A stretch of 54,852 bases of DNA from Prevotellaceae bacterium (GTDB taxonomy: Bacteria > Bacteroidota > Bacteroidia > Bacteroidales > UBA932). The stretch spans positions 1 to 54,852 of the forward strand of contig JAIRSZ010000002.1 in the NCBI GenBank assembly GCA_031255195.1, given 5' to 3'. A program made the position numbers and the translations under genes. Under the pieces are notes generated by a model. It was not told where the DNA came from and searched no databases. It saw only the letters and a list, made by a program, of their open reading frames with translations. Below, one piece after another: positions 6,215 through 54,852 of this stretch (within the stretch, counting starts at the first letter, position 1; the number at the start of each line of letters is the position of its first letter).

Positions 6215-8362
6215 ATGTCTGTAAAATCTACCATAATAGTTCGCTTCTTTTTCATGTACTTTTTGCTTGTCGGCTTCGCTATTGTCGTGGTGGTGCAAAT
6301 GGTGCGGATTGTTACCGGTATGGATGGCGGGCAGTATCAGAAGGACAGAATAGGGGAGAGGATACATACGGAAAAAATAATTCCGGTTAGCCGCGGCAAC
6401 ATCCTGGCGCACGACGAGAAGCTGCTCGCTACGACCATCTACAAGTACAAGATATTTATCGACCTCAACGCAAAGGGGCTTGACGACGCAACCTTTAACA
6501 AGTACGTAGACTCGGTGGCGCTGAACCTGCACAGCGTGATTGGAGAAAAAAGCGTTGAAGCCTACGCCAAAGAGCTGCGAGCCGACCGCCGGAAGGCGCT
6601 TGGCGATACTAAAAAGAAAACGTTCCGCTACCGTCCGCTGGCAGGCCGCTCCGTTAGCTACAGCGAGATGAAGGCGCTGAGCGAGACTCCGCTGCTGCGC
6701 CGCAACTCCAACAGCGGCGGGCTGATGGTGGAGACCCAAATAAGCCGCCTCCAGCCCTACGAGTCGATGGCGCGCAACACGGTAGGCCGCACCAATAGCG
6801 ATGGCAACGGGTACATAGGCATTGAGTATTTTTTCAACAAAGAGCTGGCCGGCAAGCAGGGCATGGCGAGGCTGCACAGAACGGTGGGGAAAAAGCAGTG
6901 GATACCGTTGCAGAGCAAGCCCGACGTAGAGCCGGTTGAGGGCAGCGACATTATTACAACGCTCGATGTTGATTTGCAAGAAATGGCGGAGGGCGAGGTG
7001 GTGAAAAGCCTGCTCAAAAACCCCGACTTAGAGTGGGGCACTGCCGTGATTATGGAGGTGGCTACGGGCGAGGTGCGCGCCATTGCCAACAAGAAGCGGG
7101 AGGGAAAAGATCGCATTGTAGAAAAGGAAAACTACGCGCTGTACTACAGCAAAGACCCCGGGTCAACCTTCAAGCTGGCCTCATTTATGATAATGCTGGA
7201 GAAAAACCTCAAGCTCACCGACTCGGTGGATACAAAGGACGGAAAGATAACGAGGTACGGCCATTCGTTTAGGGACGAAGGCTCAAGAGGCGGGATGCTG
7301 ACTATGCAGCAGGCGTTTGAGAAGTCGTCGAACGTGGGGACGATAGAGCTGTTGAGAAAGCTCTACGGAGACAAGGACGGCAGGCGGGATTTTGCGGAGC
7401 GCATAGAGGCGCTCAAGCTGAAGGAGGTGGTGAACTATGACATCTCGCACGGCAAAACGGGAGTTGTGCCCAACATCAAGTCGGTTGATAAATTTTCGGG
7501 GCTGACGCTCGAGATGATGAGCATTGGCTACGAGCTGGAGATAACGCCAATGCAAACGCTGGCGCTCTACAACGCCGTGGCCAATAACGGGGTGATGGTT
7601 CACCCCAAGTTCATAAAGGCGGTGCGACAGGATGGCCGGGTGGTAAAGAGGTTTTCCACGCAGGTGGTGCACGCCTCCATCTGCTCGAAAAATACGCTGA
7701 ACAACCTGCGCCTGCTGCTGGAAGGGACGGCAGAAAACGGCACGGCAAGAATGGCGCGCAGCAGCGCGTTCAAGGTAGCCGGCAAGACGGGCACCGCCTA
7801 CATTGCCGAGCCGCGCTACACCAACCAAAAGTTGTCGTCGTTTGCGGGGTACTTTCCCGCCGACAATCCGATATACAGCTGCATTGTGGCGTTCAAAACG
7901 TTCAGCACGCCCAACAACACCTACGGAGGAGCTATTGCCGCTCCGGTGTTTAAGGAAATAGCGGAGAAGGTGTACGCCCGCTCCGTTACGTGGCATCCGC
8001 CCATTACGGACAGGAGGCCGCCCCCCGAAGCGCCCTACACCAAAAGCGGCAGCTACCGCAAGCTGGAGCAGGCGCTCGCCAAACTCAACATACCCCTGAG
8101 CGCCCAGCCCAACGCAAGCGAATGGGTTACCACCGAACAGCAGGGCAACGAGGTGGTTGCCCACAATCGGGGAATGGTGAAAGATCTTGTCCCCAACGTC
8201 AAAAACATGGGGCTACAGGACGCCATTTACGTTTTGGAAAATAGCGGGTTGAGGGTGCGCTTTTCGGGGAGAGGAACGATACAGCAGCAAAGCCCGAATC
8301 CGGGAACTCCCTGCGCCGCGGGAGATGTAGTGGCGCTAACGTTGAGCTATAATGAATTTTGA
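6215..8362 (+). CDS. ftsI: penicillin-binding protein (FtsI/PBP3-type transpeptidase) with C-terminal PASTA domain
   Basis: Carries SxxK (GSTFK), SxN (KSSNVG) and KTG (AGKTGTAY) motifs. The C-terminal MGLQDAIYVLENSGLRVRFSG... is PASTA-like. Confidence 0.9.
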   Translation: MSVKSTIIVRFFFMYFLLVGFAIVVVVQMVRIVTGMDGGQYQKDRIGERIHTEKIIPVSRGNILAHDEKLLATTIYKYKIFIDLNAKGLDDATFNKYVDSVALNLHSVIGEKSVEAYAKELRADRRKALGDTKKKTFRYRPLAGRSVSYSEMKALSETPLLRRNSNSGGLMVETQISRLQPYESMARNTVGRTNSDGNGYIGIEYFFNKELAGKQGMARLHRTVGKKQWIPLQSKPDVEPVEGSDIITTLDVDLQEMAEGEVVKSLLKNPDLEWGTAVIMEVATGEVRAIANKKREGKDRIVEKENYALYYSKDPGSTFKLASFMIMLEKNLKLTDSVDTKDGKITRYGHSFRDEGSRGGMLTMQQAFEKSSNVGTIELLRKLYGDKDGRRDFAERIEALKLKEVVNYDISHGKTGVVPNIKSVDKFSGLTLEMMSIGYELEITPMQTLALYNAVANNGVMVHPKFIKAVRQDGRVVKRFSTQVVHASICSKNTLNNLRLLLEGTAENGTARMARSSAFKVAGKTGTAYIAEPRYTNQKLSSFAGYFPADNPIYSCIVAFKTFSTPNNTYGGAIAAPVFKEIAEKVYARSVTWHPPITDRRPPPEAPYTKSGSYRKLEQALAKLNIPLSAQPNASEWVTTEQQGNEVVAHNRGMVKDLVPNVKNMGLQDAIYVLENSGLRVRFSGRGTIQQQSPNPGTPCAAGDVVALTLSYNEF

Positions 8363-9858
8363 AAAATAAAAATATGGTTTTTGCAGAAATACTAAAGCAG
8401 GCAGGAGCGATGACGGTGCACGGCAACGCCAACGTTGATATTACCTCCATCAGCAACAGCAGCAGGGAATCGGGTAGGGGATGCTGCTTTGTTGCGCTCA
8501 GGGGCGCGCAAACCGACGGACACCTCTTTATCCCCGACGCTGTTGCGGGCGGCGCGGTGGCGGTTATCTGCGAGCAGCTGCCGGAGACGCTCAACCCCGA
8601 CGTTTGCTACGCCGTGGCGAAGGATAGCAGCAGCGCGGCGGGATTGGCGGCGGCGGCCTTTTACGGCAACCCTTCGCGCAAGCTGAAGCTGGTTGGCGTG
8701 ACCGGCACTAACGGCAAAACCACCACGGCAACTCTCCTCTACCGCCTTTTCAGGGCGCTGGGGTACAAGGCGGGGCTAATCTCCACGGTGGTTTACCGGG
8801 TAAACGACAGGGCAATCGAGGCTACCAACACTACGCCCGACTCCATTACCCTCAACCGGCTGATGAGCGAGATGGTGGAGGCGGGATGCACCTGCTGCTT
8901 CATGGAGGTGAGCTCGCACGCCATTGCGCAGCGGCGCATTGAGGGGCTGAACTTTGCGGGCGGCATTTTCAGCAACCTTACGCACGATCACCTCGACTAC
9001 CACAAAACGTTTGAGGAGTACCTCAAGACCAAGCAAGCGTTCTTTGACGGGCTGCCCGGAGAAGCCTTTGCGCTCACCAACGCCGACGAGCGCAACGGGC
9101 GGGTGATGGTGCAGAATACGCGGGCGCAGGTAAAAACCTACGGGCTGCGCACGCCTGCCGACTTCAAGTGCCGCATTGTGGAGCCACACATGGACGGGAT
9201 GCTGCTCGATCTGAACGGGACGGAGGTTTGGACGAAACTCATAGGCGATTTCAACGCCTACAACGTGTGCGCCGTCTACGGGGCGGCAATGCTGCTTGGC
9301 GCGCCGCACGACGAGGTGGTGCGCATCATCAGCACGCTCGACTCGGTGGCGGGGCGGTTTGAGTACGTGAAGTCGCGCACGGGCATTACCGCCATCGTTG
9401 ACTACGCGCACACCCCCGATGCGCTGGCTAACGTGCTGGGCACGATCAACAGGCTGCGCAGGGCTGGGCAAAGGCTGATAGTGGTGGTGGGCTGCGGCGG
9501 CAACCGCGACAGCACCAAACGCCCCATCATGGCGCGCGAGGCCTCCGAAAACAGCGACATGGCAATCCTCACCAGCGACAACCCGCGCAAGGAGAATCCA
9601 AAGGATATTCTGTCCGAAATGTATGTCGGCGTGAGCGCCGAGGCACGCGCGAGGACAACCGTCATTACCGATCGCCGCGAGGCTATCAAGGCGGCGGTGA
9701 TGTTTGCCCAAAAGAACGATATTATTCTGGTTGCGGGTAAAGGGCACGAGACCTACCAGATTGTAGGCACAGAAAAATTCCACTTTGACGACAGGGAAGA
9801 GCTGGCGGCCGCTTTTGCAGAGCGCGACGGCAGCGGTGGAAATGAAAACGGAAATTGA
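8359..9858 (+). CDS. murE: UDP-N-acetylmuramoyl-L-alanyl-D-glutamate--2,6-diaminopimelate ligase
   Basis: GVTGTNGKTTT P-loop and the DNPR motif (LTSDNPRKENP), which is typical of DAP-adding MurE. The probable true start is the ATG at 8374. Confidence 0.9.
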   Translation: MKNKNMVFAEILKQAGAMTVHGNANVDITSISNSSRESGRGCCFVALRGAQTDGHLFIPDAVAGGAVAVICEQLPETLNPDVCYAVAKDSSSAAGLAAAAFYGNPSRKLKLVGVTGTNGKTTTATLLYRLFRALGYKAGLISTVVYRVNDRAIEATNTTPDSITLNRLMSEMVEAGCTCCFMEVSSHAIAQRRIEGLNFAGGIFSNLTHDHLDYHKTFEEYLKTKQAFFDGLPGEAFALTNADERNGRVMVQNTRAQVKTYGLRTPADFKCRIVEPHMDGMLLDLNGTEVWTKLIGDFNAYNVCAVYGAAMLLGAPHDEVVRIISTLDSVAGRFEYVKSRTGITAIVDYAHTPDALANVLGTINRLRRAGQRLIVVVGCGGNRDSTKRPIMAREASENSDMAILTSDNPRKENPKDILSEMYVGVSAEARARTTVITDRREAIKAAVMFAQKNDIILVAGKGHETYQIVGTEKFHFDDREELAAAFAERDGSGGNENGN

Positions 9859-9910
9859 AGGTAAAATGATTTTTCAAAATGATTTTTTTTAACTCATAAC
9901 TCAAAAGGCG

Positions 9911-11164
9911 ATGCTCTACCATCTTATGACATACTTAGGGAGCGTTTACGATTTTCCTGGCCAGCGGTTGTTTAGCTACATCTCGTTTCGCGCGGGCGTG
10001 GGCGTGTTGCTGTCGCTGGTGATGGGGCTGGTGTTCGGCAAGCGCATCATCAGGCTGCTGCAAAAGAGGCTTATAGGCGAGGAGGTGCGCGACCTTGGGT
10101 TGGAGGGGCAGCTGCAAAAGCGCGGCACGCCTACTATGGGCGGGCTTATCATCCTGTTTTGCATCCTTGTGCCAACGCTGCTGCTGGCCGACCTGACCAA
10201 CATGTACACGTGGCTCATGATCATCAGCACGGTGTGGCTCGGCACGCTGGGCTTTCTGGACGACTACATCAAGGTTTTCAAGAAAAACAAGTCGGGGCTG
10301 CACGGCAAGTTTAAAATCATTGGTCAGGTGGGGCTGGGCATAATTGTGAGCCTGCTGCTCTACTCAGGCGACGCTTTTGTGGTGCGCGACCGCCTTCCCG
10401 CCGGACATCCCGAAGCCCAGCGGGTAGCGGTGGGAGGCAGCACAGACGCTCCAAGGATGATTTACCTCAGCGAGGCGCACAAGAGCACAAAGACCACCAT
10501 ACCGTTCTTCAAGAACAACGAGTTTGACTACACCATGCTCGTCCCCGCCTTCCTTGGCGAGCATCGGCAGCTGGCGGGGTGGATTATCTTTATGCTGGTA
10601 ACCATTTTCATTGTAACGGCGGTGTCCAACGGCGCTAACCTGACCGACGGCATGGACGGGCTTGCTACGGGCGTGTCTATCATCATCGGCATCACGCTGG
10701 GCATCCTTGCGTACCTGTCGAGCAACGTGATTTACGCCGACTACCTGCAAATAATGTACATTCCCAGCTCCGGCGAGATGGTCATCTTTATGGCCATCGT
10801 CATTGGGGCGCTCATAGGGTTTTTGTGGTACAACAGCTATCCGGCGCAGGTGTTTATGGGCGACACGGGAAGCCTTGCGCTCGGCGGCATCATTGCCGTG
10901 TACGCCATCATCATTCGCAAGGAGCTGCTCATTCCGGTTTTGTGCGGCATATTTTTTGCCGAAAGCCTGTCGGTGCTTATTCAGGTGTCCTACTTTAAGT
11001 ACACCAAGAGGAAGTACGGCGAAGGGCGCAGGGTGTTCAACATGGCGCCGCTGCACCACCACTACCAGAAAAAAAATATGCCGGAGGCAAAAATTGTGGT
11101 GCGCTTCTGGATCATTGCAGCGTTGCTGGCCATTACCGCCGTGCTAACGCTAAAGGTAAGGTAA
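9911..11164 (+). CDS. mraY: phospho-N-acetylmuramoyl-pentapeptide-transferase
   Basis: Polytopic membrane protein with [10 protein letters not shown] and APLHHHYQ motifs. Confidence 0.9.
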
Positions 11165-11176
11165 CGCTAAGAGTAA

Positions 11177-11221
11177 AGAGCATAAGAGTTGAGAACATAA
11201 GAGTTGAGAACATAAAAGTTG
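11177..11221. repeat. 3 x 15-bp tandem repeat in the mraY-murD spacer
   Basis: Units are agagcataagagttg / agaacataagagttg / agaacataaaagttg. Confidence 0.85.
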
Positions 11222-11287
11222 TCGCTAATGGTTGAGGGGGCTGATTCCCAAAGCTTTGGGGGCTACTTAAAATAAAGAAAAACAAAG

Positions 11288-12631
11288 TTGAAAAAAAGGC
11301 TGGTCATACTTGGAGGAGGCGAAAGCGGCGTTGGGGCGGCTATTCTTGGGCGCGCCAAGGGCTTTGACGTTTTTTTGTCCGATGCGGGGCGCATTAGTCC
11401 GGCGCACCTCGATGTGCTGCAAGCCCACCACGTCCGCTACGAGCAGGACGGGCACAGCGAATCGCTGATACTGAACGCCGACGAGGTGGTGAAAAGTCCG
11501 GGCATACCGGACAGCGCACCGCTGGTGAAGAAGCTGACGGCGGCAGGCATTCCCGTCATTGCGGAGATAGAGTTTGCGGGGCGCTACACTAAGGCCAAAA
11601 TGATTTGCGTGACGGGCAGCAACGGAAAAACTACCACCACCTCGCTTATCTACCACATGATGGCAGGCGCTGGACTGAACGTGGGGCTGGGCGGAAACAT
11701 CGGCAAGAGCTTTGCCTTGCAGGTGGCGTTCAAGCGTTACGACTACTACGTGCTGGAGCTGAGCTCGTTTCAGCTCGACAACATGTACCACTTTAAGGCC
11801 GACGTTGCCGTGCTGCTCAACATCACGCCAGACCACATGGACAGGTACGGCTACAGCCTCGAAAACTACGCGAGGTCAAAGTTTCGCATTGCGCAGAACA
11901 TGGACAAAGAGGGCTGCTTCATCTACTGCGCAGACGATGAGGTGACGATGAAATATTTGCCGGAGGCAGGAGTGCAGGCGCAGCTGCTCGGCTTTAGCCG
12001 GAAGCGCCAGCTGGCGCAGGGCGCATTTTTAAATAGCAACAACACAAAACTTGTATCAATGTATAAAAACGATGTTTTCGAGACGCTCGTGGACGAGCTA
12101 TCGCTCAAAGGTAAGCATAACCTTTACAACTCAATGGCCGCAAGCATTGCAGGGCAGGCGTTGAGGATTAAAAAGGAGAACATCCGCAACAGCTTAATTG
12201 GCTTTGAAAGCATAGAGCACCGGTTGGAGCCTGTGCTGAAGGTTGGCGGAGTGCTGTTTATCAACGACAGCAAGGCTACCAACATCAACTCCACGTGGTA
12301 CGCGCTGGAGAGTATGACCACTCCTACCGTGTGGATTGTGGGCGGGGTGGACAAGGGCAACGACTACGGCGAGCTCGCCGACCTGGTGAGGCAAAAGGTG
12401 AAGGCCATTGTTTGCCTGGGCGTTGACAACCGCAAAATTCACGAGGCTTTTGAGAGCATGGTGGGCATTATTGTAGATACGCGCTCGGCTGAGGAGGCGG
12501 TGAAGACGGCCTACAGCTTGAGCGACAGGGGCGATACGGTGCTGCTTTCGCCGGCCTGCGCCAGCTTCGACCTCTTTCACAGCTACGAGGACAGAGGCCG
12601 GCAGTTTAAAAATGCAATACGATACCTGTAG
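11288..12631 (+). CDS. murD: UDP-N-acetylmuramoylalanine--D-glutamate ligase
   Basis: VILGGGESGVGAA Rossmann-like N-terminus and VTGSNGKTTTT P-loop. The start codon is TTG. Confidence 0.9.
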   Translation: MKKRLVILGGGESGVGAAILGRAKGFDVFLSDAGRISPAHLDVLQAHHVRYEQDGHSESLILNADEVVKSPGIPDSAPLVKKLTAAGIPVIAEIEFAGRYTKAKMICVTGSNGKTTTTSLIYHMMAGAGLNVGLGGNIGKSFALQVAFKRYDYYVLELSSFQLDNMYHFKADVAVLLNITPDHMDRYGYSLENYARSKFRIAQNMDKEGCFIYCADDEVTMKYLPEAGVQAQLLGFSRKRQLAQGAFLNSNNTKLVSMYKNDVFETLVDELSLKGKHNLYNSMAASIAGQALRIKKENIRNSLIGFESIEHRLEPVLKVGGVLFINDSKATNINSTWYALESMTTPTVWIVGGVDKGNDYGELADLVRQKVKAIVCLGVDNRKIHEAFESMVGIIVDTRSAEEAVKTAYSLSDRGDTVLLSPACASFDLFHSYEDRGRQFKNAIRYL

Positions 12632-22422: not shown

Positions 22423-22445
22423 ACAAAAAAAGGGGCAAGCCCCTT
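22423..22445 (-). terminator. rho-independent terminator following the SRP RNA
   Basis: The minus strand reads aagggg-cttg-cccctt followed by ttttttt. Confidence 0.7.
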
Positions 22446-22536
22446 ATATCGCACCGCTACAACCACCTACCCTTGCTGCCTTCCGGCCCTGGGGGAATTC
22501 GGCAGGAGCTGGTCGTATAAGACTCACCCCAAAGCG
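22446..22536 (-). ncRNA. ffs: signal recognition particle RNA (small 4.5S-type)
   Basis: The minus strand contains CCCCAGGGCCGGAAGGCAGCAAGGGTAGG, matching the conserved domain IV core (..AGG.CCGGAAGG.AGCA..) with a GGAA tetraloop. The 5' CTTATA pairs with the 3' TATAAG. A -7 box and a terminator flank it. The ends are approximate. Confidence 0.8.
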
Positions 22537-49191: not shown

Positions 49192-49221
49192 TATGATTTA
49201 CAGCTAAGCAAGTAATTTGCA

Positions 49222-49229
49222 CAAAAATA
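49222..49229 (-). promoter_or_regulatory. -7 box TATTTTTG upstream of suhB
   Basis: Minus-strand TATTTTTG, about 31 nt upstream of the start at 49191. Confidence 0.4.
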
Positions 49230-49277
49230 GAAAGAAAAATTGAAATGCAGGCAAAAAAATTGTCCGTATTTATTCAT

Positions 49278-49304
49278 AATGCAAATCAAAGGTTGAAAGT
49301 GTTT
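49278..49304 (-). repeat. copy B of the conserved 27-nt motif AAACAYTTTCAACCTTTGATTYGCATT
   Basis: The minus strand reads aaacactttcaacctttgatttgcatt, matching 21048-21074 at 25 of 27 positions. Confidence 0.8.
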
Positions 49305-49337
49305 AGCATCAGGTGTATATACAGGCGCATAATCGTA

Positions 49338-49360
49338 TCTCCTGCAAGATTTGCAGGAGA
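49338..49360. other. perfect 10-bp stem / 3-nt loop hairpin at the island boundary
   Basis: tctcctgcaa-gat-ttgcaggaga, followed by the T-rich ctttccttcttctgccttttttt. Confidence 0.7.
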
Positions 49361-49365
49361 CTTTC

Positions 49366-49600
49366 CTTCTTCTGCCTTTTTTTCTGAGAAAGATGGTTGA
49401 ACGAATACACCAATGGCCTCATACGCCAATATATCACTAAAAAACAAATCCTTACAAATTTAAAAGGCAGTGATATCCAACTTTTTTTTAATCCAAAATC
49501 AACAAAAAACCAAGAAAATCACTTAACTTTGCTGCGCCGAAAGACAGGTTTTATAGAAAAGTTGCATTGTCTACCTTGGATATGCATTTGTTTTATTCTG
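49366..49600 (+). mobile_element. IS30-family transposase, C-terminal stump only, frameshifted (pseudogene)
   Basis: ERWLNEYTNGLIRQYITKK... matches the conserved IS30 ...W(E/Q)RG.NENTNGLLRQYFPK block. After a frame change around the T8 run (49482-49489), KINKKPRKSLNFAAPKDRFY matches ...LN.RPRK.L.F.TP.E.F. The DDE catalytic region is absent. Confidence 0.7.
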
Positions 49601-49891
49601 TTTTAACGGCAGGATTGATAACCGATGCTGTGAGCGCAAATGGAAAGATTGTGTTGGAAGTAGAAGTAGGAAGAGCGTGTGTTGGCAAACAGTTTCTCAG
49701 AGATGTATTTTAGGTTTGTATGATGCCAAGATGTAGATTACTGATGCTATTCGTCCGCAACGATTATTGTGGAAACAATGATTTTTCAAAAAATTAATTC
49801 TTTGAAATGCTGTATATTAATGGCAGATTACAGTTGTTATTAAAATGGATTGTTTTGATTGGGCATTAAAAATACATAATATAAATAAAAC

Positions 49892-51988
49892 ATGAGCATA
49901 GAAAAAGGAATTATAACACGCCGCAAAAGTGATAAAAAAGTTGAAACACAACAATTGTTTCAACAACTTATTCAACCCGAAGAATATGTTGGGGATTTGT
50001 ATTCTATTAACTACGAAACAGCACGAGTAATAATACACGACTTTCACCGTGCAAAAGTTGGCGGAATACCAAGTTTGAGTTTCTTGATTGCTACAAGAAT
50101 TGACCCAAATAATTCTGACATTGATTTTAAGGAAGAGGATGCCTCTTTTATTCTTTTGCGTGTCATGGATTCTGCGATCTTACCACAAGACGGCGAAGCG
50201 GAACGTATAAGAGTAGAAACAGCCCAAAGGATTAGTGGCGAAACGGATAAACATTGGGACGAAACAGGTTCAATGGACTCAAAAACGAAGCATTATTTGA
50301 GTTTTGCAGGTATTCAATGCAGAATTATTGGTACATTTTTTCTTGAAGAAAACCCGCAAAACAACGAATCGCCATTGAATTTAAAATTTGGCAGTGATAT
50401 TTCAAATTACTACCCAAATAGAGGATTAAAGGTTTATAAGCCCAATGGCAAAGCGCTTGAATTGATTGTAAATTATTCCGACCCTTCTAATATTCAGGCA
50501 AATATTGAAAAATATGGCGGAAATACGGAACGAGTACGTCTTGGCGAAGTTCGTTATGCCTCGACAAACAGAAAATATCAGCATATTGATGATGTTCCTG
50601 TTTATATTTATCCTGCTGATTTACTTTCTCAAAAATCCGCACTTTTTGGAATGACAAGAACCGGTAAATCCAACACTACAAAAATTATTGCAAAATCAGT
50701 ATTTGAGTTAAGACGGCAAAAAAATGGAAATGTGCCGTTAAGAATTGGACAAATTATTTTTGACCCAAATGGTGAGTATGCGAATGAAAATGTGCAGGAT
50801 AATAATTCTGCATTGAAAAATGTGTGGAATTTATTACCCGAAAAACGAAAAGAAGATGTCGTTACTTATGGAATTACGCAACACCCGAATGATCCTGATA
50901 GAATACGAATGTTGCTCAACTTCTATCTTGATGAAAATGTATCTATTGGTAAAGAAATTATCAACTCTTTGTTATCCGATGACACAACAATATACATAAA
51001 GAATTTTTCACAAGTCAATTTGGAAAAACCGGACGAAAATGGTGTTGGCGTAACGACAAGATATAAAAGGCGAATTTTAGCATATCGGTCTGTCTTGGCA
51101 AAAGCGGGTTTTCCTGTGCCTAAAAAGTTTACTGTTTCTACAAAAGATCTATTTAATAAGGACTTGTTGTCTGCAATGGATAACAGTCAAAGTGATAATT
51201 CAGTAGATTATAAATCTGCTGCAAAAGTATTTGGAACCGATAATCCTACTTTACAACAATTGGCAGGGGCTTTTGAATCGCTTGATAAGTTTATCAGGGA
51301 AAATAAGGAATATAAAACTTTTGAGAATAATTATGTGCAAAAATCAAAATCGGGCAATACTTGGGCTGATGAAGATTTGAAAAAGATTATTGGTGTTTTT
51401 CAATATCCAAATGGCACAAGAAAAATCGGCAAAGCGGTAGAGCAACATAGCGCAGATACGTCAAGTGATTATGCAGAAGATATTTACAATCATTTAATTC
51501 AGGGGAAATTGATAATTATTGACCAATCAACCGGCGATACTGAACTCAATAAATCTTCTGCAGATAGAATTATTAATAAGATATTTAATGGCAATAAAGC
51601 ACAATTTATAAAGGGTAATACAAAAATTCCCGAAATACTTGTTTATATAGAAGAAGCGCATAACATCTTACCGGCAGGAAATGATTTAGATACAAAAAAC
51701 ATTTGGGTGCGAACAGCCAAAGAAGGTGCTAAATACCGTATCGGAATGGTTTATGCCACACAGGAAGTTAGCAGTATTCAAAAGAATATTCTCAAAAATA
51801 CTGCGAATTGGTTTATAAGCCACTTAAATAATGCCGATGAAACAAAAGAATTAAGCAAATACTATGATTTTGACGATTTTGTGCCGTCAATAAGACGAGC
51901 GCAAGACAAAGGATTTTTGCGTGTAAAAACTTTGAGCAATCTATTTGTGATACCTGTTCAAGTAGATAAATTTGAAATAAACATATAG
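49892..51988 (+). CDS. HerA/FtsK-superfamily ATPase (HerA-like, DUF87-type)
   Basis: N-terminal barrel-like segment (YVGDLYSINYETARVIIHDFHRAKVGGIPSLSFLIATR). Walker A is GMTRTGKS (50648-50671). The Walker B-like motif is ILVYIEEAH (51635-51661). Downstream, RIGMVYATQEVSSIQKNILKNTANWFISHL is typical of the HerA ..TQRPS....vl.n....i..rl block. Confidence 0.8.
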   Translation: MSIEKGIITRRKSDKKVETQQLFQQLIQPEEYVGDLYSINYETARVIIHDFHRAKVGGIPSLSFLIATRIDPNNSDIDFKEEDASFILLRVMDSAILPQDGEAERIRVETAQRISGETDKHWDETGSMDSKTKHYLSFAGIQCRIIGTFFLEENPQNNESPLNLKFGSDISNYYPNRGLKVYKPNGKALELIVNYSDPSNIQANIEKYGGNTERVRLGEVRYASTNRKYQHIDDVPVYIYPADLLSQKSALFGMTRTGKSNTTKIIAKSVFELRRQKNGNVPLRIGQIIFDPNGEYANENVQDNNSALKNVWNLLPEKRKEDVVTYGITQHPNDPDRIRMLLNFYLDENVSIGKEIINSLLSDDTTIYIKNFSQVNLEKPDENGVGVTTRYKRRILAYRSVLAKAGFPVPKKFTVSTKDLFNKDLLSAMDNSQSDNSVDYKSAAKVFGTDNPTLQQLAGAFESLDKFIRENKEYKTFENNYVQKSKSGNTWADEDLKKIIGVFQYPNGTRKIGKAVEQHSADTSSDYAEDIYNHLIQGKLIIIDQSTGDTELNKSSADRIINKIFNGNKAQFIKGNTKIPEILVYIEEAHNILPAGNDLDTKNIWVRTAKEGAKYRIGMVYATQEVSSIQKNILKNTANWFISHLNNADETKELSKYYDFDDFVPSIRRAQDKGFLRVKTLSNLFVIPVQVDKFEINI

Positions 51989-51993
51989 GAAAT

Positions 51994-52839
51994 ATGAAAC
52001 CTCAGACAATACAAATTTTTCTTCCTGATGGCAATCCAACAGGTATTAAAGTCGCAGAGCTTACGAATAGAATAATAACGGCAATATTAATGCCTCGTAA
52101 TAAAATACAAGAAGCTGAAAAACGAGAAGAAATCAAAAAGCATGGTATTTATTTTCTATTCGGAGAGATAGAAGACAAGGCAAAGCCATTGGTTTATATT
52201 GGAGAGACAGATGATTGCTTGGAAAGAATAAAAACACATAATAGGAATAAGGATTTTTGGAATTATGCTGTAATGATTACTTCAAAAACTAACTCTTTTA
52301 CAAAATCACATGTGAAATATTTAGAATATTTAAGTATCAAAAGCGCCATTGACACTAGTAGATATGACACCGATAATCAAGTAACTCCAACAAAACCATT
52401 TGTAACAGAAAGTATGGAAGCAGATTTACTTGACAACTATGATACTCTTAAAGTATTACTTGCTACATTAGGATTTCCTATTTTTGAGGAGGTCAGAATA
52501 TCCTCAAAAAAATCCAAAAATTTATTTTACTGCAAAACAAGGGATATAATGGCTGAAGGAAATTTAATAGATGATGGCTTTGTTGTATATAAAAACTCAA
52601 AAGCAGTCCCAAATGCTACTAATGGATGCATGAAATGGGTAATCGAATTGAGGGAAAAATTAAAAGAAAATGGAATACTGAAAGAAGAAAAAGGAATACT
52701 ATCATTTTTATCAGATTACATTTTTAATTCGCCAAGTGCGGCATCGTCTGCAGTTTTGGGACGTCATTCAAATGGCTGGACTGAATGGAAAAATAAAGTA
52801 AACAATAAGACTTTGGATGAATTATATCGTAAATCATAA
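51994..52839 (+). CDS. GIY-YIG nuclease-fold protein with C-terminal DUF4357-like domain
   Basis: GIYFLFG (GIY) ... LVYIGETDDCLERIKTH (YIG + Arg) ... VKYLEYL (Glu). The C-terminus has GFVVYKNSKAV....FNSPSAASSAVLGRHSNGWTEWK, the DUF4357 signature. The start is 5 nt after the HerA-like stop. Confidence 0.75.
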   Translation: MKPQTIQIFLPDGNPTGIKVAELTNRIITAILMPRNKIQEAEKREEIKKHGIYFLFGEIEDKAKPLVYIGETDDCLERIKTHNRNKDFWNYAVMITSKTNSFTKSHVKYLEYLSIKSAIDTSRYDTDNQVTPTKPFVTESMEADLLDNYDTLKVLLATLGFPIFEEVRISSKKSKNLFYCKTRDIMAEGNLIDDGFVVYKNSKAVPNATNGCMKWVIELREKLKENGILKEEKGILSFLSDYIFNSPSAASSAVLGRHSNGWTEWKNKVNNKTLDELYRKS

Positions 52840-52850
52840 ATTGCAATGTT

Positions 52851-54224
52851 ATGGGCTTTGAAGGAGAATATGCAAGTTATTTACCATTGAAACGAATACG
52901 AGAGAGTGCAAAAGTAAAAGCGCTTGAAGAACGTTTTAGAATAAGGCAAAAAGAAATAAACACGGAAAATAATATCGAAAACAACATTATCTGTAAGTCT
53001 GACCTTGTTGAAAGTATGCAACAACCCGATTTAGTGCTTGCGATAGACGGCAGTTGTTTGCCTGCAAAAGCAGAAAACGGATTTCCGGGTGCTGAATTTG
53101 GCTACGTTACAATTGCTTCTGTTCTTATTGATTTGAAATTAATTGCCGAATTAGAACAAGAAAAGTTTATTGACCCTAAAAAGTTCAGAGACACCGAAAA
53201 AGCGTCAACAATAGAAAGTATTTTTCCGGGTTGTAATGTTGTATTGGACACCGAGAAAGATGCAAAGTCATCAATGCGACGGGCATTATTTGAGGAATTA
53301 AAGAGTAATGTGATTTTTTCAGACTGCGAAACCTTGCTTGATACATACGAATATCTATTCAAAAAAAAACAGGAACTTTTTGGGAACGAACACAAACCAC
53401 AAAGTCCGATAGAAAGCGTTGATAAAGAAATGACTTACGGTTATGGTGAATATGTTTGCCCACATTCGGGCGAGCCATTATTTTCAACAGATGCTTTGCG
53501 TTTGCACGAATTAATGCACGAACAAGGTGGGGGAAATGGTGAAATGTTTGGACAAATTATGTCAACTCTTGAAAAATTATGGCTTGTACATATTCTTCGT
53601 TCGTTTGAACAAAAAGATTGGCTATCAACATTAAAGCGTGTCGCTTTCATAATGGATGGCGCTTTGGCAGTATTCAGCACTTCTTCGTGGCTTGCAAAAG
53701 TAATTGATTATGAGATAAAACGAATTAATGAAAAGCAAAAGAAAATTAACGAACAAGACCTTTTGATAATTGGGATTGAAAAATCAGGCACTTTTGTCAA
53801 TCATTTTATTGATATTGATACAGCGAGAGATGGCTCAACAGACATATTTCCAAAACAATCGGCTTTACTTTTAGACGATGGTTATATTAAGCGTAACATT
53901 GTGTTTTCAGAAAGTACAAAACCATATGGACAAGACACCTATTTTGGCAGAAAACTCTTTTACAAAACGGCTTCGGGACAAAAACTTGTTCCTGTTGTTG
54001 CTTGTTATAACGACAGACAACAAAACCTAAAAACAGCACAACCCGACCAATTTTCAAGATTGGCAGATGTAATGAATTTACTGGATAGATTAGTCTCAAG
54101 CCGTTATCCCAATGCGATTTCCCCGCTTGTTTCGGCGCACGAAGAATCAGCAATACCGTTACATTTGGGCAAACGTTTTTCGGAAGATATTGCAAGAGAA
54201 ATCAGAGAAAAATCCAACTTATGA
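52851..54224 (+). CDS. NurA-like 5'-3' nuclease domain protein
   Basis: DLVLAIDGSCLP (catalytic Asp, D66), AFIMDGALAVF and LIIGIEKSGTFVNHF match the NurA DGS / DG.L / ..KSG motif series. It starts 11 nt after the upstream stop. Confidence 0.7.
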   Translation: MGFEGEYASYLPLKRIRESAKVKALEERFRIRQKEINTENNIENNIICKSDLVESMQQPDLVLAIDGSCLPAKAENGFPGAEFGYVTIASVLIDLKLIAELEQEKFIDPKKFRDTEKASTIESIFPGCNVVLDTEKDAKSSMRRALFEELKSNVIFSDCETLLDTYEYLFKKKQELFGNEHKPQSPIESVDKEMTYGYGEYVCPHSGEPLFSTDALRLHELMHEQGGGNGEMFGQIMSTLEKLWLVHILRSFEQKDWLSTLKRVAFIMDGALAVFSTSSWLAKVIDYEIKRINEKQKKINEQDLLIIGIEKSGTFVNHFIDIDTARDGSTDIFPKQSALLLDDGYIKRNIVFSESTKPYGQDTYFGRKLFYKTASGQKLVPVVACYNDRQQNLKTAQPDQFSRLADVMNLLDRLVSSRYPNAISPLVSAHEESAIPLHLGKRFSEDIAREIREKSNL

Positions 54225-54852
54225 TAAATACAGAGCAAATATTAAAAGGACATAATACCGCAGAAGCACGATGGGCGCGTTTCGGACCCTATTATGCGAT
54301 GTTTCCTGTTGATTTCGCTTTTGAGGTGGTTGAAAAATACTCAAAAAAAGGTGATTACATAATAGACCCTTTCGCCGGTAGATGTAGCAGTATTTATGCA
54401 GGCGGAGTTTTGGGGCGTAATAGTTTGGGAATAGAAATAAATCCTGTCGGGTGGTTATTTGGAACGGTAAAATTGCAACCGGCGGACAAAGATGATGTAA
54501 TTGACAGATTGCTTGAAATTTACGGAAAACGAAATGAATATGCAGAACAGGCAGAGCAAATGCCTGAATTTTACCGAATTTGTTATTGTGATGAAGTTCT
54601 AAAATTTCTTTTAGTTGCCCGTGAAAATTTAGATTGGAAAAACAATAGTGTTGATGCTACATTGATGTCAATTCTTTTAATTTATCTGCACGCAAAATTG
54701 GGCGAAGGATTATCAAATCAAATGCGTATGACAAAATCAATGGGTATGAATTATTCTGTTCAATGGTGGAAATCGAAAGAAATGAATGTCCCTCCTGAAA
54801 TAAATCCTTGTGAATTTATTCATAAAAAGATAGAATGGCGGTACGAAAAAGG
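54221..54852 (+). CDS. DNA methyltransferase (N6/N4 amino-MTase type), 3' end outside window
   Basis: Not in the ORF track because no stop lies within the window. I translated it by hand as MINTEQILKGHNTAEARWARFGPYYAMFPVDFAFEVVEKYSKKGDYIIDPFAGRCSSIYAGGVLGRNSLGIEINPVGW.... This has an AdoMet motif I (IIDPFAGRCSS, 54359-54391) followed by GR..LGIEINP. It shares an ATGA overlap with the NurA-like gene. Confidence 0.7.
   Translation, partial: MINTEQILKGHNTAEARWARFGPYYAMFPVDFAFEVVEKYSKKGDYIIDPFAGRCSSIYAGGVLGRNSLGIEINPVGWLFGTVKLQPADKDDVIDRLLEIYGKRNEYAEQAEQMPEFYRICYCDEVLKFLLVARENLDWKNNSVDATLMSILLIYLHAKLGEGLSNQMRMTKSMGMNYSVQWWKSKEMNVPPEINPCEFIHKKIEWRYEK

Follow-up and report, generated by a model that had tools for sequence, protein, structure and literature searches.

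Organization of the locus

The window analysed here, a stretch of 54,852 nucleotides, ends in four co-directional genes, which lie with their left border as follows.

49200-49891, no strand: AT-rich left island border (GC profile, IS30 remnant, hairpin)
49892-51988, + strand: g1, HerA/FtsK-type hexameric translocase ATPase, 698 aa
51980-52847, + strand: ORF-sized insertion (~866 bp), from blastn against three-gene cassettes
51994-52839, + strand: g2, GIY-YIG nuclease with C-terminal DUF4357 (RAMA-like), 281 aa, a PDC-S14 member
52851-54224, + strand: g3, NurA-family (RNase H-like fold) nuclease, 457 aa
54221-54852, + strand: g4, N-terminus of a DNA methyltransferase, 210 codons of ~376 aa, the rest lying past the window end

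The packing described in an earlier note on this DNA, with spacers of 5 nt and 11 nt followed by an ATGA overlap, was reproduced in full. The four-gene array is real and far beyond chance, because identical gene order recurs in dozens of unrelated genomes. Near position 49200, the GC content drops from 0.55-0.59 to 0.32-0.37 (GC profile), the island having 35% GC against 55-59% in the Bacteroidales flank; this, together with the occurrence of the same HerA, NurA and methyltransferase (MTase) trio across phyla, bears out the proposal of horizontal acquisition. The IS stump that had been placed beside the genes is weakly supported: the ORF concerned (49397-49606, +), a short IS30 remnant, aligns with NCBIfam transpos_IS30 along positions 229-255 of a 267-position profile (E 7e-4). 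A terminator scan located a terminator-like hairpin at 49338-49375, inside the AT-rich left border, and blastn against relatives set the left edge of cassette homology at 49865-49892, ~25 nt 5' of the HerA start codon. As had been claimed, no classical restriction endonuclease, S subunit or integrase was found within the visible part of the window.

Characteristics of the encoded proteins

Pfam analysis confirmed all four domain assignments of the earlier note, namely HerA/DUF87, GIY-YIG with DUF4357, NurA and N6_N4 methylase, and the motifs quoted in their support (GMTRTGKS, VYxEEAH, NurA D66 and DPFAGR) proved genuine and invariant across ~40 cassettes. In g1 (DUF87/HerA, 7.5e-12), the Walker A motif GMTRTGKS corresponds to G253-S260 and the Walker B motif VYxEEAH to V584-H590, both being invariant in 39-40 homologous cassettes. 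PADLOC HerA models matched g1 with a best E value of 1.8e-16. Among solved structures, this protein comes closest to TdpA (8wet_A): a single-sequence search gave E 1e-13, and the profile search gave 5.9e-23, as against 1.2e-12 for the next-best HerA structure.

The NurA match of g3 (2.1e-27) spans positions 2-253 of 254, that is, the whole profile. Residues D66, E82, D269, E310 and H430 are conserved, of which D66 and D269 are invariant across ~40 cassettes, and a degenerate, zinc-finger-like insert is present at ~aa 183-222. More than 1300 homologues of g3 were found, forming 585 clusters at 50% identity. PDB sequence and profile searches with the cassette NurA revealed no sequence-level match to solved NurA structures. 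TdpB was the only nuclease among the g3 profile hits, and by sequence the two compare at E 2.9, which is not significant. With the AF2 model of g3, Foldseek ranked chain 8wfd_G of the TdpAB complex first (prob 0.82, E 0.02), followed by NurA 3tai; the likeness to TdpB is weak, since the model itself is poor (pLDDT 51).

The visible part of g4 matched N6_N4_Mtase at 3.3e-8. Compared with the beta class, its motif order is permuted, the AdoMet motif I (DPFAGRCSS) lying near the N-terminus, and PDB 2zie as well as the N4C MTase 8s9m align to it in permuted order. Comparison with full-length cassettes and with the full-length orthologue at L007:3464-4594 (86% nucleotide identity) places the catalytic SPPY motif at ~aa 250, past the window end. 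Motif I (DPFAGR) and SPPY (motif IV) are invariant in 41 cassettes. The enzyme is predicted to be a permuted SPPY-type amino-DNA methyltransferase, with m4C or m6A as its likely product.

The conserved unit comprises three genes

In nearly all of ~43 distinct loci, HerA, NurA and MTase genes follow one another closely and in a constant order. The neighbourhood is conserved only in part, as g2 was missing in ~40 of 43 cassettes, and the earlier view of the four genes as the system needs correction: the conserved unit is the HerA-NurA-MTase trio, g2 is an insertion, and the four-gene form seen in the window is a rare variant of a three-gene cassette. The trio occurs in Bacteroidota, Ignavibacteria, Caldisericales, Cloacimonadota, a CPR genome, Alteromonas, Acinetobacter and Parabeggiatoa, and distant trios (23-34% identity) with the same permuted MTase are carried by a haloarchaeal plasmid and a Deferribacter megaplasmid. 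Vibrio prophages harbour HerA-NurA with a different MTase in an int-xis accessory slot, and in some genomes the trio forms one unit within an integron-like cassette array. Cassette genes showed dN/dS of 0.04-0.11 at dS of ~1-2; co-inheritance, mobility and integrity of the catalytic motifs are established features of the trio.

No further conserved gene was present in the cassette flanks examined. What adjoins the cassette varies from locus to locus, with Avs2, PtuA, PDC-S05, Aga-SIR2, AIPR, HNH, integrases, MobC and further MTases among the neighbours. No name for the trio was found in PADLOC 2.0, NCBIfam or the searchable literature, PADLOC being without a NurA model. The claim that the genes belong to no named system accordingly stands for the trio, which is unmatched as a multi-gene system in PADLOC 2.0 and NCBIfam, but not for g2, which by itself is PDC-S14. 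The compact trio looks like an unnamed R-M-type immune system.

g2 is a stably retained insertion

In blastn comparisons with the three-gene cassettes L001-L011, homology ended at 51975-51979 and restarted at 52845-52851, skipping g2. The HerA-NurA spacer, which is 8-15 nt in three-gene cassettes, is here filled by the ~866 bp carrying g2. The nearest relative, whose NurA is 93% identical, is also without g2, and so are the close relatives L007, L008 and L030, which indicates that g2 is dispensable for core activity. The gene is confined to one small cassette subclade.

The whole length of the g2 protein (DUF4357, 2.5e-20; GIY-YIG, 3.4e-6) is covered by four PADLOC PDC-S14 models, the strongest match having an E value of 6.7e-109. 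GIY, YIG, R78, H82, E111 and N128 are invariant among 39 g2 homologues, and the GIY-YIG domain of the AF2 model (pLDDT 75) resembles UvrC 1yd6. All g2 relatives of at least 84% identity lie between HerA and NurA of this cassette, while none of those at or below 68% adjoins HerA or NurA; members of the g2 clade are at least 81% identical to one another and at most 68% to all others. In dS, g2 matches the HerA and NurA genes on either side, and its dN/dS is 0.04-0.10, a sign of purifying selection; together these values point to long, stable co-inheritance and not to repeated fresh invasion. g2 is thus an accessory, ORF-sized insertion that has been stably retained under selection.

Proposed function and alternative explanations

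We propose, with moderate confidence, that these genes make up a candidate defence cassette that is self-contained, modification-linked (R-M-like) and spread horizontally, present here as a rare variant in which the inserted PDC-S14-type nuclease would act as an added endonuclease. The most plausible reading of the core is that the MTase marks self and the HerA motor feeds NurA. The methyltransferase would mark the host genome, and a HerA hexamer and a NurA dimer would form a motor-nuclease complex that loads at DNA ends or nicks and processively degrades both strands. In T. kodakarensis, HerA-NurA breaks down dsDNA on both strands, and it has been put forward as an antiviral agent (PMC12977600). 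The methyl mark may halt or prevent degradation of self DNA, parallel to the reported action of phosphorothioate on TdpAB. g2 would most likely open entry sites for HerA-NurA, or serve as a backup effector. Invariant catalytic motifs, the order-conserved trio with its distant plasmid and prophage versions, the 35% GC island, the varied flanks without a further conserved gene and the likeness to TdpA favour defence, and the intact catalytic residues of a PDC-S14 member that, under purifying selection, has diverged in step with the cassette favour the role given to g2. Against defence, the known HerA-NurA is end-dependent, nothing evident in the three-gene core would account for a reading of methylation, housekeeping genes flank many cassettes, and the sole experimentally studied operon of the same domain content, in Thermus ICEth1, has a DNA-donation phenotype (PMC5365140).

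A tentative and less probable alternative is that two independent systems are nested in one operon, the trio acting alone and g2 being mechanistically unlinked to HerA/NurA. g2 would then be a free-standing PDC-S14 candidate, possibly a modification-sensing Type IV-like one, or a semi-selfish endonuclease lodging in R-M-type operons. Its absence from most cassettes, nearest relatives included, its precise insertion and its full-length PDC-S14 match agree with this. So do its distant relatives, which stay away from HerA/NurA and are often nested in Type I R-M, GmrSD, PDDEXK_4 or other defence contexts, the existence of a phage-encoded family (phrog_12629; PHROG 12629 matched g2 at 7e-65), and the fusion of DUF4357 to Type IV enzymes of the GmrSD and McrB types (PMC4619093, PMC11090510). 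Nesting is harder to reconcile with the exact position shared by all close relatives of g2, with gaps of 4-15 nt that suggest translational coupling, and with the long co-inheritance indicated by its substitution rates.

It is unlikely that the cassette is a DNA-donation or export module like the tdtA operon of Thermus thermophilus ICEth1, in which an endonuclease would cut the chromosome and NurA-HerA would process DNA and pump it out for uptake by neighbours, the module thereby promoting its own spread. That operon has the same domain content, including an extra endonuclease, and its NurA-like gene, TdtA and Tth111II are each required for transjugation (PMC5365140). The cassette is likewise highly mobile across phyla, and in one locus (L048) a MobC-like gene lies directly upstream; but gene order differs, being NurA-HerA in Thermus, and most cassettes are free of ICE or conjugation genes, being either solitary units between housekeeping genes, members of integron-like arrays or occupants of a prophage slot. 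Transjugation also requires the unusually strong natural competence of Thermus, which is not a known trait of the cassette hosts.

A housekeeping pair for double-strand-break end resection, as in archaea and Deinococcus, with the methylase and GIY-YIG gene merely adjacent, is very improbable: the Pfam NurA and DUF87 matches are solid and NCBI labels homologues 'DNA double-strand break repair nuclease NurA', but the distribution is patchy and cross-phylum in a low-GC island, Mre11/Rad50 were absent at every locus examined, the genes scored 39-52 bits against NCBIfam HerA repair equivalog cut-offs of 800-970, linkage with a co-evolving MTase is strict even in archaea, and copies occur in prophages and integron-like arrays.

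Comparison with known systems

The term 'undescribed', applied to the genes in the earlier note, is overstated, as analogues exist in TdpABC and the Thermus ICEth1 operon. With canonical archaeal/Deinococcus HerA-NurA, the cassette shares Pfam families, catalytic residues and the expected HerA hexamer and NurA dimer; it differs in lacking Mre11-Rad50 linkage and sequence matches to solved NurA, in falling far below the repair equivalog cut-offs, and in being mobile, not vertical, and obligately MTase-linked. The HerA-scaffolded anti-phage systems SIR2-HerA/Nezha, DUF4297-HerA and 'Gao_Her' also combine a HerA ATPase with an effector enzyme, and their HerA models and structures (PADLOC/PDB) match the C-terminal ATPase part. 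The cassette effector is NurA, however, and not SIR2 or DUF4297, whereas those systems are without a modification enzyme and act via NAD+ depletion or abortive infection, and cassette HerA scored 31-36 bits against NCBIfam HerA_antiphage cut-offs of 800-850. PDC-S14, matched by g2 over its full length, is defined by PADLOC as a stand-alone gene, whereas the g2 clade is embedded in a HerA-NurA-MTase operon.

As described by Blesa et al. 2017 (PMC5365140), the ICEth1 operon consists of Tth111II, a NurA-like gene, TdtA (HerA-like) and a PF01555 methylase. Made up of four genes and borne by a mobile element, it combines the activities predicted for the present locus, namely an extra endonuclease, a NurA-family nuclease, a HerA/FtsK hexameric ATPase and an N4/N6 methylase. 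Its genes follow the order REase-NurA-HerA-MTase, a type IIG REase stands in place of GIY-YIG/DUF4357, its NurA-like protein has 377 aa, and the phenotype demonstrated for the operon is transjugation, a form of DNA donation, and not defence.

TdpABC of thermophiles (An et al., Nat Chem Biol 2025; PDB 8wet, 8wfd, 8y1k), described in PMC12914056 as a phosphorothioate R-M system, likewise joins a modification gene to a restriction pair, the HerA-like hexameric ATPase TdpA and the nuclease TdpB. Among solved structures, the window HerA matches TdpA far better than any other, and a TdpB chain ranks first in the fold comparison with the low-confidence NurA model. TdpC synthesises phosphorothioate, whereas the cassette has an AdoMet-dependent base methyltransferase (DPFAGR, SPPY); the HerA likeness is restricted to the ATPase core, NurA and TdpB do not match significantly by sequence, and the cassette proteins are larger (698 and 457 aa, as against 586 and 375 aa). 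Phosphorothioate reportedly blocks TdpAB translocation, and the cassette would share this logic of a self mark that restrains a translocating nuclease. The proposed self-marking by the MTase, with HerA-NurA as the restriction arm, has a structural precedent in TdpAB.

Operon structure and genomic surroundings

The last 5 kb of the window hold four co-directional open reading frames, which are separated by 5- and 11-nt gaps and joined by an ATGA overlap as described in the earlier note, and Pfam bore out all four of its domain calls (DUF87/HerA, 7.5e-12; DUF4357, 2.5e-20, with GIY-YIG, 3.4e-6; NurA, 2.1e-27 over the full profile; N6_N4_Mtase, 3.3e-8). These genes and the other features located in the window are listed below. 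The part of the methyltransferase (MTase) beyond 54852 is described from orthologues, of which L043, a locus in another genome, predicts a protein of about 375 aa with unrelated DNA after the gene.

Features located in the window
22429-22536, - strand, Bacteroidales small SRP RNA (Rfam RF04183, 101.7 bits)
49338-49375, + strand, two overlapping terminator-like hairpins followed by T-runs (terminator scan)
49397-49606, + strand, IS30-family transposase remnant ORF (E 7e-4, profile positions 229-255 of 267)
49892-51988, + strand, gene 1, HerA (698 aa)
51994-52839, + strand, gene 2, GIY-YIG/DUF4357 (281 aa)
52851-54224, + strand, gene 3, NurA (457 aa)
54221 to window end, + strand, gene 4, MTase (210 codons, incomplete at window end)

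The GC content of the window drops from 0.55-0.59 to 0.32-0.37 at about position 49200. Left of this AT-rich island lies Bacteroidales host DNA with genes for HisRS, a BamA-like protein and inositol monophosphatase, and the small SRP RNA likewise places the host lineage in Bacteroidales. The "IS stump" of the earlier note, which has the host gene for inositol monophosphatase on one side and the cassette on the other, is a 69-codon ORF which does match the C-terminus of an IS30 transposase, but the match is weak (E 7e-4). The two hairpins lie just inside the AT-rich border with nothing obvious upstream of them on the + strand, and may have been left behind by the element that carried the island in. 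The island border was searched for a tRNA or att site and showed neither, and no integrase or ICE genes were visible within the window. A sigma-70 promoter scan (31 sites against 22 expected) was uninformative, the consensus being different from that of Bacteroidales.

HerA, NurA and the MTase form a conserved three-gene core

More than 1300 homologues of the NurA-like protein exist; the best 120 share 71-93% identity with it and have a uniform length of about 455 aa. When the wider family was clustered at 50% identity, there were 585 representatives with an E-value limit of 1e-3 and 112 with a limit of 1e-30. The window was then set against the neighbourhoods of seven homologues and of 36 loci, the latter taken from contigs representing one genome per species, with tblastn. 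What proved to be conserved of the four-gene neighbourhood proposed earlier was the HerA-NurA-MTase trio, whereas gene 2 was missing from about 40 of the 43 cassettes that keep the MTase. The order HerA (~702 aa), NurA (~455 aa), MTase (~376 aa) was found in essentially every sufficiently long locus, with a HerA-NurA spacer of 6-15 nt and a 4-nt overlap or a gap of a few nt between NurA and MTase, in hosts as varied as Bacteroidota, Ignavibacteria, Caldisericales, Cloacimonadota, a CPR genome, Acinetobacter, Alteromonas and Parabeggiatoa, among others.

Across about 40 cassettes, Walker A (GMTRTGKS) and Walker B (VYxEEAH) of HerA, residues D66, E82, D269, E310 and H430 of NurA, and motifs I (DPFAGR) and IV (SPPY) of the MTase were invariant or nearly so. 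The dN/dS ratio of the trio was 0.04-0.11 at dS of about 1-2, and thus the high protein identity reflects strong constraint as well as transfer. Pfam and PADLOC analysis of the flanks of 34 cassettes revealed no further conserved gene; among the 116 nearest-neighbour ORFs, every family occurred at most three times. Some of the neighbours were housekeeping genes, and others belonged to defence or to mobile elements (Avs2, PtuA, PDC-S05, Aga-SIR2, AIPR, HNH, TOTE primase, other MTases, integrases, MobC). At one locus from an uncultured Cytophagales MAG (L047:8152-12482), HerA, NurA and MTase all gave only partial tblastn matches; this looks like a decayed copy in which the three genes were degraded together, rather than one in which the MTase survived alone.

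Gene 2 is an old but dispensable insertion

In blastn comparison with three-gene cassettes, homology to the window ended at 51975-51979 and restarted at 52845-52851. The ~866 bp in between contain exactly gene 2 and stand in place of a HerA-NurA spacer of 8-15 nt in the other cassettes, and the locus with the closest NurA relative (L007, 93% identical) is without it. Gene 2 matched the PADLOC single-gene defence candidate PDC-S14 (model PDLC04925, E 6.7e-109, residues 1-278 on profile positions 13-295 of 301), of which it has the GIY-YIG + DUF4357 architecture in Pfam, as well as phrog_12629 (E 7e-65). In a Foldseek search with its model, the GIY-YIG domain alone was matched (UvrC, 1yd6), there being no convincing match to the whole protein.

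The family of gene 2 has about 4500 members and shows a sharp identity gap between 84-100% and <=68%. Relatives at 84-100% (the window, L043, L048/L049 and L056, the L-numbers being loci from other genomes) all lie between HerA and NurA of a trio cassette, and six further relatives (P0122-P0127) probably belong with them. Those at <=68% were never near HerA, NurA or the trio MTase; their neighbours were most often Type I R-M genes (Methylase_S 8/125, HSDR_N 3/125), GmrSD or PDDEXK_4, and a PDDEXK_4 - DUF4357 protein - DUF1643 trio recurred on many of their contigs (L057-L135). The literature also reports fusions of DUF4357 with GmrSD and with Type IV enzymes of the McrB type. This distribution suggests that the GIY-YIG/DUF4357 family regularly nests within or next to loci of modification-based defence, and raises the alternative that gene 2 is an independent nested system, which we regard as possible though rather doubtful. 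In support of it are the clean boundaries of the insertion and the life of the wider family outside the trio. On the other side, within the cassette gene 2 showed dN/dS of 0.04-0.10, and its dS of 0.8-1.7 resembled that of HerA and NurA on either side. The GIY, YIG, Arg, His, Glu and Asn positions of gene 2 do not vary. In neighbour-joining trees, the cassettes bearing gene 2 fell in one subclade along with L007, L008 and L030, which lack it. The gene 2-bearing form is rare (1 of 36 loci in an unbiased genome scan, plus the window). Gene 2 is thus dispensable to the core, yet an old and selectively maintained part of a rare variant.

A second four-gene cassette was located at L043:1198-2736 (MAG Bacteroidales Cd354_bin6). 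Its identity with the window is 96% in the HerA C-terminus, 85% in gene 2 and 58% in NurA, the last lying in a longer ORF of ~513 codons, a mosaic which suggests that cassettes have recombined with one another near the site of insertion.

Features of the NurA and MTase proteins

NurA had no significant nuclease match in PDB sequence searches, whether the query was the protein alone or either of two profiles. Foldseek with the AF2 model returned TdpB from the TdpAB-DNA complex as the top match (chain 8wfd_G, prob 0.82, TM 0.34/0.41, E 0.02), followed by P. furiosus NurA, a result that is only a hint as the model is poor (pLDDT 51). Around residues 183-222 of NurA (window 53397-53516), the family profile matches C2H2 zinc-finger proteins (E 7e-5). 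Distant members carry the motif CP..C...H here, of which C203 and H219 alone are left in the clade of the window. The stretch resembles a zinc-finger or zinc-ribbon insert that has degenerated. To our knowledge, such an insert is undescribed for canonical NurA.

The MTase was matched by the PADLOC MTase_II model. In alignment with beta-class enzymes its motif order is permuted, with motif I in front and SPPY about 200 residues further on. Its structure matches were T. thermophilus TTHA0409 (2zie) and the N4-cytosine MTase 8s9m; SPPY is compatible with both m4C and m6A and does not choose between them.

Distant relatives and mobility

A tblastn search of plasmids and phages identified NurA relatives at 24-27% identity. 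On a plasmid of the archaeon Halorarius halobius, DUF87, NurA-like and DNA methyltransferase genes follow the order of the trio (HerA 34% identical; MTase 23% identical, E 3e-14), and the MTase has the trio layout, with an N-terminal DPFSG and SPPY at about residue 270. The Deferribacter desulfuricans megaplasmid pDF308 (L138:1733-8206) carries MTase, then HerA, then NurA (MTase match E 7e-28); its herA is interrupted by an IS200/IS605 element (tnpA and a TnpB-family gene), and the cassette is probably inactivated. In Vibrio temperate phages, exemplified by 10N.286.54.E5_PE002 (PQ189353.1, L139:1-6100, where HerA is annotated as two ORFs; also L140 and L141), the arrangement is integrase, HerA, NurA, an opposite-strand Dam-type MTase and excisionase. 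The int-xis slot is an accessory ('moron') slot where prophages often keep defence genes. The same arrangement was seen in two IMG/VR contigs; a scan of viral contigs gave no match with the window NurA, and with a diverse profile only two Vibrio-type prophages. A Tolypothrix plasmid has HerA-NurA with an exonuclease gene and without MTase. These contexts indicate that the trio is old and recurrent, and that this HerA/NurA clade has been tied repeatedly and persistently to a DNA methyltransferase on mobile DNA.

In a Ginsengibacter MAG (JAUCCB010000001.1, L004:1-21365) the trio, at 7881-12492, is one unit in an array of small co-oriented cassettes, which include MerT, NucS_C, Gp49/HTH toxin-antitoxin and AAA_15. 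Between the units lie about 16 structured intergenic repeats, each 130-170 nt long and bounded by AAC...GTT inverted termini; their single-strand fold z-scores are -2.0 to -2.4. The tyrosine recombinase at the array end scored 176 bits on the integron-integrase model (cut-off 265) and about equally on Xer models; since it fails to reach the IntI cut-off or to outscore Xer, we call the array 'integron-like'. Conserved non-coding flanks of this cassette recur in L010, L012, L016, L022, L029 and L033, from other phyla (Ignavibacteria, Caldisericales, a CPR genome, Cloacimonadota), and therefore integron-like capture may be one route of spread of the trio. Cassettes bearing gene 2 are without such flanks and adjoin a MobC-like gene and an IS21 element (L048) or the IS30 remnant (the window).

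Proposed function of the cassette

The best reading of the cassette is RM-like defence, as the earlier note had proposed, although the function is wholly inferred. The MTase would methylate host DNA, and a HerA6-NurA2 complex would thread DNA from ends or nicks and degrade what it threads; methylation would stop loading or progression of the complex on self DNA. In the window variant, the GIY-YIG/DUF4357 nuclease would provide endonucleolytic entry on DNA without free ends, or act as a second effector. The entry role appears reasonable by analogy with a Thermus operon that also pairs NurA-HerA-MTase with an extra endonuclease.

More broadly, and tentatively, HerA-NurA-MTase could possibly be a widespread unnamed R-M class of bacteria, archaea and prophages, in which a processive ring-translocase/nuclease gated by base methylation, at loading or in progress, takes the place of a site-specific endonuclease. 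Its scale would be that of more than 1300 close homologues and ~585 protein clusters at 50% identity. If so, the four-gene form would represent such machines recruiting a plug-in GIY-YIG/DUF4357 endonuclease, which makes its own entry sites on circular or end-protected invaders.

Should the trio be a defence system, it would add a compact, three-gene and very widely transferred member to modification-based immunity, and would tie the archaeal 'repair' pair HerA-NurA directly to immunity, a question recently raised by work on T. kodakarensis HerA-NurA and on TdpAB. It would also offer a tractable case of base-methyl sensing by a ring translocase, where the reader may be the motor, the nuclease or the MTase as a targeting subunit, while the four-gene variant is a natural experiment in how single-gene nucleases (PDC-S14) embed in larger systems. 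The trio family is large, compact and overlooked by current defence annotation: as current tools would label its members only 'NurA repair nuclease', 'DUF87' and orphan Type II methylase, the cassette would be missed in defence inventories of Bacteroidota and many uncultured phyla.

Comparison with known systems

The earlier note had put the operon forward as a candidate undescribed system. The gene set is unnamed in PADLOC 2.0 and NCBIfam, but gene 2 is already catalogued as PDC-S14, and close analogues exist. No PADLOC 2.0 model matched NurA, while HerA gave partial matches to generic HerA models and a weak one to mad8. NCBIfam had no specific model: HerA repair equivalogs scored 39-52 bits against cut-offs of 800-970, and HerA_antiphage models 31-36 bits against 800-850. 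Literature searches that joined NurA and HerA to terms for defence brought up no HerA-NurA-methylase system, and for this family no report of phage or plasmid protection or of a defined methylated motif.

One analogue is the Thermus thermophilus ICEth1 tdtA operon. It comprises the type IIG REase Tth111II, a NurA-like nuclease, the HerA/FtsK-like hexamer TdtA and a methylase of PF01555, of which the first three are all needed for DNA donation in 'transjugation' (PMC5365140). By Pfam, the window operon matches this description in domain content; the gene order is unlike. That the cassette is a DNA-export module of this kind is improbable in our judgement. Canonical HerA-NurA is resembled in that a DUF87 ATPase and NurA stand side by side with intact catalytic motifs (Pfam 7.5e-12 and 2.1e-27); a housekeeping repair role is nevertheless very improbable, as Mre11/Rad50 was found in none of the loci examined and the cassette lies in a low-GC island.

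SIR2-HerA and DUF4297-HerA (Gao_Her) were rejected, since Pfam and PADLOC detected no SIR2 or DUF4297 domain in genes 2-4. MADS (mad1-mad8) is an 8-gene operon in which MAD6, MAD7 and MAD8 are mandatory (bioRxiv 10.1101/2023.03.30.534895); the sole mad match here was the weak one of mad8 to the P-loop part of HerA (2e-12), in an operon of 3-4 genes, and MADS was therefore excluded. The 'HerA/FtsK capture systems' and the BREX-related systems of Krishnan and co-workers were also set aside, NurA being mentioned in neither paper. As regards Type II R-M, an MTase is present in the cassette; gene 2, the sole endonuclease of classical type, is mostly absent, and the constant partners of the trio MTase are HerA and NurA instead.

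The other analogue is the phosphorothioate (PT) system TdpABC. TdpA (8wet_A) was the top PDB match of the gene 1 HerA as a single sequence (E 1e-13), and by profile it reached E 5.9e-23 in two stretches including the Walker A region, while the DUF4297-associated HerA scored 1.2e-12 and Sulfolobus HerA 3e-10. Among solved structures, the trio HerA is by far closest to TdpA. On self DNA, the PT mark reportedly prevents both translocation by TdpAB and its nuclease activity. TdpB and the trio NurA did not match significantly by profile search (E 2.9). The tdpABC operon is described as a third phosphorothioate R-M system, its modification being made by tdpC alone (PMC12914056), whereas the third gene here encodes an AdoMet-dependent N6_N4 methyltransferase and not TdpC-type PT synthesis. 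If the class proposed here is real, HerA-NurA-MTase would be the methyl-reading counterpart of the phosphorothioate-gated TdpAB.
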